Of a stretch of 7,023 bases of DNA, positions 1,083 to 1,273 are shown one piece after another. Below the pieces are notes generated by a model that did no database searches, was not told where the DNA came from, and saw only the letters and a program-made list of their open reading frames with translations. How positions within the stretch are numbered: the first letter of the stretch is position 1; each line of letters starts with the position of its first letter. Both the position numbers and the translations under genes were made by a program. Source of the stretch: Escherichia coli (lineage in GTDB: Bacteria; Pseudomonadota; Gammaproteobacteria; Enterobacterales; Enterobacteriaceae); NCBI RefSeq assembly GCF_003334785.1, contig NZ_QOWV01000037.1. One strand, written 5' to 3'.

Positions 1083-1273
1083 TTTATAGTGGTTAATGGC
1101 CTGCGAAAAGGCAGTTGAATCTCTTCATCATGCAGAACGGAATTGCACACAACGGACTGATACTTCTCTGGCGGATGAGAGAGGGGAAGCATTTATGTCC
1201 GGGAAAAACCACTTTATCTGACCATGCTGTTTTGTACCTGCCGGTATCCACATTTGTGGGTACCGGCTTTTTT
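1047..1273 (+). ncRNA. agn43 leader RNA, possibly equivalent to the IsrC small RNA, ending at the leader terminator
   Basis: Defined only by the predicted promoter/start at about 1047 and the strong intrinsic terminator at 1240-1273. In K-12 a small RNA is annotated between yeeP and flu. Boundaries are inferred, not observed. Confidence 0.3.
1240..1273 (+). terminator. Rho-independent terminator/attenuator hairpin in the agn43 leader
   Basis: GCCGGTATCCAC (1240-1251) pairs with GTGGGTACCGGC (1256-1267), a 12-bp stem with one G-U pair and a 4-nt loop, followed by TTTTTT at 1268-1273. It sits about 25 nt upstream of the flu start codon. Confidence 0.7.

Follow-up and report, generated by a model that had tools for sequence, protein, structure and literature searches.

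The closest described relative of the element studied here is the leader of the phase-variable flu (agn43) gene of Escherichia coli K-12, together with the small RNA, IsrC, that is annotated within it. Phase variation of agn43 through Dam and OxyR was reportedly described by Haagmans and van der Woude in 2000, and we take this role, established for agn43, to be that of the GATC box at the start of the transcript, and putatively also that of the corresponding box in the locus presented below. The RNA is said to have been named IS102 by Chen et al. in 2002 and renamed IsrC by Hershberg et al. in 2003, IS102 being, as we assume, the original name of the same RNA. The Salmonella RNA called 'IsrC' (PMC2330248) is presumably an unrelated, island-encoded sRNA that shares the name only. 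In the RefSeq annotation of K-12 MG1655, isrC spans 195 nt (2071317–2071511) between the yeeP pseudogene and flu (start 2071539), in prophage CP4-44; its 5′ end is the G of the first GATC site, and its 3′ end is the sixth U after a hairpin homologous to the one analysed here, 27 nt before flu. Control of agn43 by its leader RNA is the subject of Wallecha, Oreh, van der Woude and deHaseth (2014, J Bacteriol 196:2728), whose system, as far as the accounts of it in citing papers go, belongs to the same gene family and concerns the same leader, in the short K-12 form rather than the long form found here. According to these papers, expression of flu is subject to attenuation or antitermination at IsrC (PMC5389530, PMC5811629), and one of them tabulates the RNA as 'IsrC sRNA (flu gene attenuation)' (PMC5811629). 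More distant parallels are the trp and pyrBI attenuators and the riboswitch terminators, in which an intrinsic terminator, placed downstream of the promoter and ahead of the start codon, likewise gives a short leader RNA; the leader described here differs from them in that neither an antiterminator pairing nor a leader peptide nor an aptamer-like core was found to be conserved in it.

The window, that is, the whole stretch of DNA that was analysed, comprises 7,023 nt of an E. coli contig (NZ_QOWV01000037.1, assembly GCF_003334785.1) and is 99.9% identical to the ETEC strain TW10722. Its features are collected in Table 1. An Rfam search of the whole window gave a single match, to RF00124 (IS102 RNA), at 1044–1280 on the + strand, which scored 74.9 bits (E = 1.5e-11), the gathering score being 46, and covered model positions 1–206 of 206. 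The hairpin at the end of the leader corresponds to the 3′ helix of the model and is aligned with high posterior probability; the central 3-bp helix, which is weak in the consensus, is not formed in the window leader. The genomic setting is that of the family: a YeeP-like GTPase gene, the leader and an Ag43/cah start codon follow one another on the same strand, as they do in K-12.

Table 1 Features of the window, with the identity between the long and short leader classes where it was computed
Feature	Position	Strand	Evidence	Long versus short class identity
YeeP-like GTPase family gene, upstream neighbour of the leader	55–927	+	ORF list; RefSeq 'GTPase family protein'; weak Era/Der-type matches	
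Putative agn43/cah sigma-70 promoter	1012–1040	+	Sequence reading, inferred	
Leader RNA, putative long-type IsrC/IS102 orthologue, about 228 nt	1046–1273	+	Rfam RF00124; ends by alignment with K-12 isrC	
GATC box: three GATC sites, putative Dam/OxyR phase-variation box at transcript start	1046–1081	+	Computed positions; both leader classes	77%
Central leader	1083–1233			29%
ORF in the long leader, 41 codons	1096–1221	+	Without Shine-Dalgarno	
Predicted terminator stem-loop (12 bp, loop ATTT)	1240–1267	+	Terminator scan, RNA folding, pairing in seven alleles	92%
U6 tract, predicted RNA 3′ end	1268–1273	+	Sequence; K-12 isrC annotation ends on the homologous U6	
Shine-Dalgarno AAGGA (1286–1290) and Ag43/cah ATG (1299–1301)	1286–1301	+	Sequence; seven alleles	
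cah/Ag43 pseudogene, 5′ 770 nt joined to the last 234 nt	1299–2298	+	Translation stops; blastn against the intact cah of TW10722; junction sequences	
CrfC/RdcA-like dynamin gene (CrfC/YjdA paralogue)	2406–4802	+	557 bits, below the equivalog cut-off of 1146	
RdcB-like (RdcB-family) gene	4799–5704	+	Family match	
Patatin-like phospholipase gene	5701–6771	+	Family match	

The hairpin reads GCCGGTATCCAC-ATTT-GTGGGTACCGGC on the + strand and is followed directly by TTTTTT and then by ATTC. Its 12 pairs comprise eight G-C, three A-U and one U-G wobble pair, closed by a loop of 4 nt, and the end of the U6 tract lies 25 nt before the ATG, so that the 12-bp GC-rich stem, the U6 tract and the spacing of about 25 nt to the start codon given in the preliminary description are all correct, coordinates included. 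A G+C-rich stem, a short loop and at least five U residues immediately 3′ of it are the features by which intrinsic terminators are recognized, and all of them are present at 1240–1273. In a terminator scan, the site ranks first among the 14 terminator-like sites of the window (7.0 ± 2.8 in shuffled sequences). The RNA segment 1230–1280 folds with a ΔG of −23.5 kcal/mol, the hairpin making up 87% of the ensemble, and has a z-score of −6.55, none of 200 dinucleotide shuffles being equally stable. The signal is thus canonical, and the strong intrinsic terminator that had been claimed is borne out by its fold, its z-score and its rank. Read on the minus strand, the hairpin lacks a T run behind it and was not called by the scan, so that it would act on the + strand only. 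A reading of the 12-bp palindrome as a DNA operator was rejected on account of the U6 tract and of the coincident annotated 3′ end of the K-12 RNA. The segment 1240–1273 is a predicted Rho-independent terminator in the leader of Ag43/flu/cah, at the known 3′ end of IsrC (IS102).

Aligned onto the window, the ends of the K-12 RNA fall at 1046 and 1273 and delimit an RNA of 228 nt, close to the leader RNA of about 225 nt proposed earlier. In both loci a TAGAAT −10 box precedes the first GATC, at which the 5′ end lies. The window and K-12 have the same terminator stem, the same U6 tract and the same ATTCACCCTC after it; in the whole stem-loop, only the first loop base differs, A in the window against G in K-12. 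The start codon follows at a distance of 25 nt in the window versus 27 nt in K-12, and the leader measures about 228 nt versus 195 nt, with a central part that is essentially unalignable (29% identity). This central part accounts for the RF00124 score of the window leader, 75 bits versus about 250 for K-12-type leaders. In the Term-seq supplements of Adams et al. (2021), neither an isrC entry nor any of the K-12 isrC coordinates was found. The full-length RF00124 match, the homologous U6 end of K-12 isrC and the descriptions in the citing papers uphold the earlier proposal of an attenuator or IsrC-like RNA end. Indeed, 'IsrC-like' understates the relationship: judged by its sequence, the element is an orthologue of IsrC, in a long-leader variant.

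The leader is present in 4137 of 5426 complete E. coli genomes, in up to seven copies per genome, and occurs in two classes. The long class, to which the window, O157 cah and a Klebsiella IncF plasmid belong, is the commoner one in E. coli, 3441 of the 5426 genomes holding at least 80% of the leader query. The short class, found in K-12, 83972 and STEC639, matches the window only from 1235 onward. RF00124 detects the same site in all of these loci, with about 250 bits for short-type and 69–77 bits for long-type leaders. In the 39 listed RefSeq records that contain the long type, no annotated feature covers it. When the two classes are aligned, the GATC box and the terminator are the only conserved blocks of the leader.

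Pairing in the hairpin was followed through seven alleles. All 84 pair cells are standard; 11 of the 12 pairs are invariant, and the remaining one alternates between U-G and U-A. The loop reads ATTT, TTTT, GTTT or ATCT. No compensatory change was found among the seven alleles, no pair having varied on both sides, and covariation is uninformative either way, since the stem is invariant except for the single U-G to U-A change. Flanks and loop drift and the stem stays, a pattern that fits a stem which may be under constraint; its conservation could also come in part from a recent spread or recombination of the module. The whole module, with the GTPase gene, the long leader, the terminator and cah, was found at 87.7% identity on the conjugative IncFIB/IncFII plasmid ps01 of Klebsiella pneumoniae, and hence moves between genera. 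When a collection with one genome per species was searched for the motif made of the sequence after the stem and the Shine-Dalgarno, no diversity was added. The search returned a single contig, JAIJJM010000521.1 (2300 bp, from a MAG labelled 'Collinsella sp.'), with an E. coli-type agn43 promoter, leader, terminator and gene start, which is most likely E. coli contamination.

One allele departs from this picture. In the Ag43/Cah locus of E. coli PigCaeca_2, a recombination breakpoint lies inside the hairpin (locus positions about 560–642): the 5′ arm and the whole upstream leader have been replaced, and the 3′ arm, the U6 tract and the Shine-Dalgarno are retained. RF00124 finds no match there, and the allele is, on this reading of its sequence, a natural variant that would lack the terminator.

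Upstream of the hairpin, the putative promoter consists of a −35 element TTGCGT (1012–1017), a 17-bp spacer and a −10 element TAGAAT (1035–1040), and lies 6 nt upstream of the position homologous to the 5′ end of K-12 isrC. The −10 element and the following AAAACGATC are invariant in the seven alleles. A simple promoter scan of the window did not call this site, for which reason we treat it as putative. GATC sites start at 1046, 1065 and 1078, three within about 40 bp at the start of transcription, as in the agn43 phase switch, and are kept in most of the seven aligned alleles, in both leader classes. On the other side of the hairpin, the block formed by the Shine-Dalgarno and the ATG is invariant in the seven alleles, and the ATG is the annotated start in strain 300709, in TW10722 and in one further locus. 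The annotation of the GTPase gene was taken from the RefSeq locus of strain 300709, which is 99.8% identical to the window. In TW10722, the closest complete genome, this gene is split by IS100 (IS21 family; positions 1187–3133 of the TW10722 locus); the window carries no insertion at the homologous point, at about 677. Just upstream of the start of the GTPase gene, at 11–25, there is a small hairpin with a T run (TTCCGGTGCGCGGGG TTTTGTCTTTTTT), which may be the terminator of the preceding gene.

Taken together with the known systems, these features suggest an attenuator arrangement, to which we assign a probability of roughly 0.9. Transcription would start at about 1046, at the Dam/OxyR phase-variable promoter. 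Polymerase that halts at the U6 tract would release the leader RNA, which is about 228 nt long and represents the IsrC orthologue in its long form, and polymerase that passes the hairpin would go on to make the mRNA of the Ag43-family autotransporter (flu/agn43/cah). Situated between the epigenetic ON/OFF switch and the ribosome-binding site, the hairpin would serve as an attenuator within the leader. Termination as predicted at this site is well supported by homology and by the strength of the signal. For the source strain, we infer both termination itself and the fraction of transcripts that terminate: the strength of the hairpin predicts that most of them end at it.

Whether read-through is regulated was approached through the folding and coding potential of the leader. 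When the nascent leader was folded and the 3′ arm of the hairpin forbidden, in the window and in K-12, no conserved antiterminator was found: the best alternative pairings of the 5′ arm are not shared by the two and have probabilities of 0.25–0.47. In both, the terminator adds about 20 kcal/mol to the nascent-leader fold. The ORF of 41 codons was considered as a leader peptide and rejected, as no Shine-Dalgarno precedes it and other long-type leaders keep neither its frame nor its stop. It is absent from short-type leaders; in the O157 homologue, owing to a 1-nt indel, the frame opened by this ATG runs on past the terminator as far as a TAA at the Shine-Dalgarno, and the Klebsiella homologue is cut by a stop codon. 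It is probably not coding. An in-frame ATG at 1224 that reads through the hairpin into the Ag43 frame was likewise discarded, being absent in O157, Klebsiella and K-12. With neither a conserved antiterminator nor a conserved leader peptide, regulated attenuation is not established here over constitutive partial termination.

Other origins or roles of the hairpin deserve to be weighed against this reading. The structure might serve mainly as the 3′ module of a trans-acting sRNA, IsrC from phase-ON cells pairing with other mRNAs and the hairpin and U tail providing stability and Hfq binding. Hfq-dependent sRNAs typically end in a hairpin with a U6 tail, the K-12 annotation has IsrC as an sRNA gene and Rfam classes it as an sRNA family, and cyoD is predicted to be a target in one paper, solely by IntaRNA. 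However, the central 150 nt, where a seed site would be expected, are only 29% identical between the leader classes, overexpression of IsrC left biofilm formation, motility and fimbriae unchanged (PMC4606813), and the papers give the function of IsrC as unknown, no validated target having been found in the literature. We consider such a main role improbable. We give as little credence to the view that the hairpin is the terminator of the upstream GTPase gene, present in the Ag43 leader by chance: it lies 313 nt past the stop codon of that gene, downstream of the agn43 promoter and GATC box, the K-12 RNA that ends at it begins at the agn43 promoter (isrC 5′ end), and it stays linked to the Ag43 start codon where the upstream leader differs. 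What speaks for this view is that the interval 927–1240 contains a single, weak + strand site (6-bp stem, 1064–1082, inside the GATC box), so that read-through from the GTPase gene probably also halts at the hairpin. The two roles, termination after the GTPase gene and termination in the Ag43 leader, are mutually compatible.

The 3′ end of IsrC and the 5′ end of the flu mRNA might, finally, both arise by RNase processing of a full-length transcript, with the hairpin as a protective stem, which we regard as highly improbable. A 12-bp G+C-rich stem with an immediate U6 is a textbook intrinsic-terminator signal and counts against this origin, and the annotated K-12 3′ end falls exactly at the end of the U tract. 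A stabilised flu mRNA without the IsrC part is described in one study (PMC5389530), which implies that processing also shapes these RNAs; yet processing of the read-through transcripts is compatible with termination of the remainder.

Under the attenuator reading, what read-through would yield depends on the gene behind the hairpin, and here the window departs from the preliminary description, which had placed the hairpin before flu. The Ag43-family leader and start codon are present, but not a working flu gene: relative to TW10722, 1846 bp of the 2850-nt cah gene are deleted, the frame is lost and stops appear in the translation from about 2091. As a consequence, read-through yields no Ag43 in the window. 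The junction, at 2065–2068, lies on a GTTA microhomology and occurs in none of the 5426 complete E. coli genomes, so that either the deletion is a rare one or the assembly was mis-joined. A different deletion is present in strain 300709, where Ag43 is joined to a truncated antirestriction gene (positions 8137–8144 of its locus); the left end points of the two deletions are equal within 1 bp (sequence ending in AATGGCGGTTA, window position 2068).

Downstream of the pseudogene, the dynamin, RdcB-like and patatin genes overlap by 4 nt each, and PADLOC matches to this trio are weak. The order GTPase gene, cah, dynamin, RdcB-like gene, patatin gene is not confined to the window, at least 80% of which is covered in 627 genomes. 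The stop codon of cah at 2298 and the dynamin gene are separated by 107 nt without a recognizable terminator, and on the + strand the terminator scan found no terminator-like site between 1273 and 6791 (a site at 6791–6809 was noted beside the trio). This absence makes co-transcription of the trio from the phase-variable promoter conceivable, if speculative. That the phase-variable promoter and read-through of the IsrC terminator also control this membrane-active trio, and make it phase-variable, seems unlikely to us; if it were so, the switch would have no functional output other than the trio in the window, where cah is deleted.

The IsrC/agn43 leader terminator has already been described for K-12, and the window holds its common long-leader form, so that the finding adds little to that description. 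Two aspects are modestly new: this copy of the terminator stands before a deleted cah gene, and nothing of the long leader except its GATC box and its terminator recurs in the leader of K-12. As the sole blocks that the two leader classes have in common, the GATC box and the terminator are thereby pointed to as the functional parts of the leader. The terminator would be the source of the IsrC RNA, and would set the share of phase-ON transcription that reaches the gene of the Ag43/Cah adhesin.
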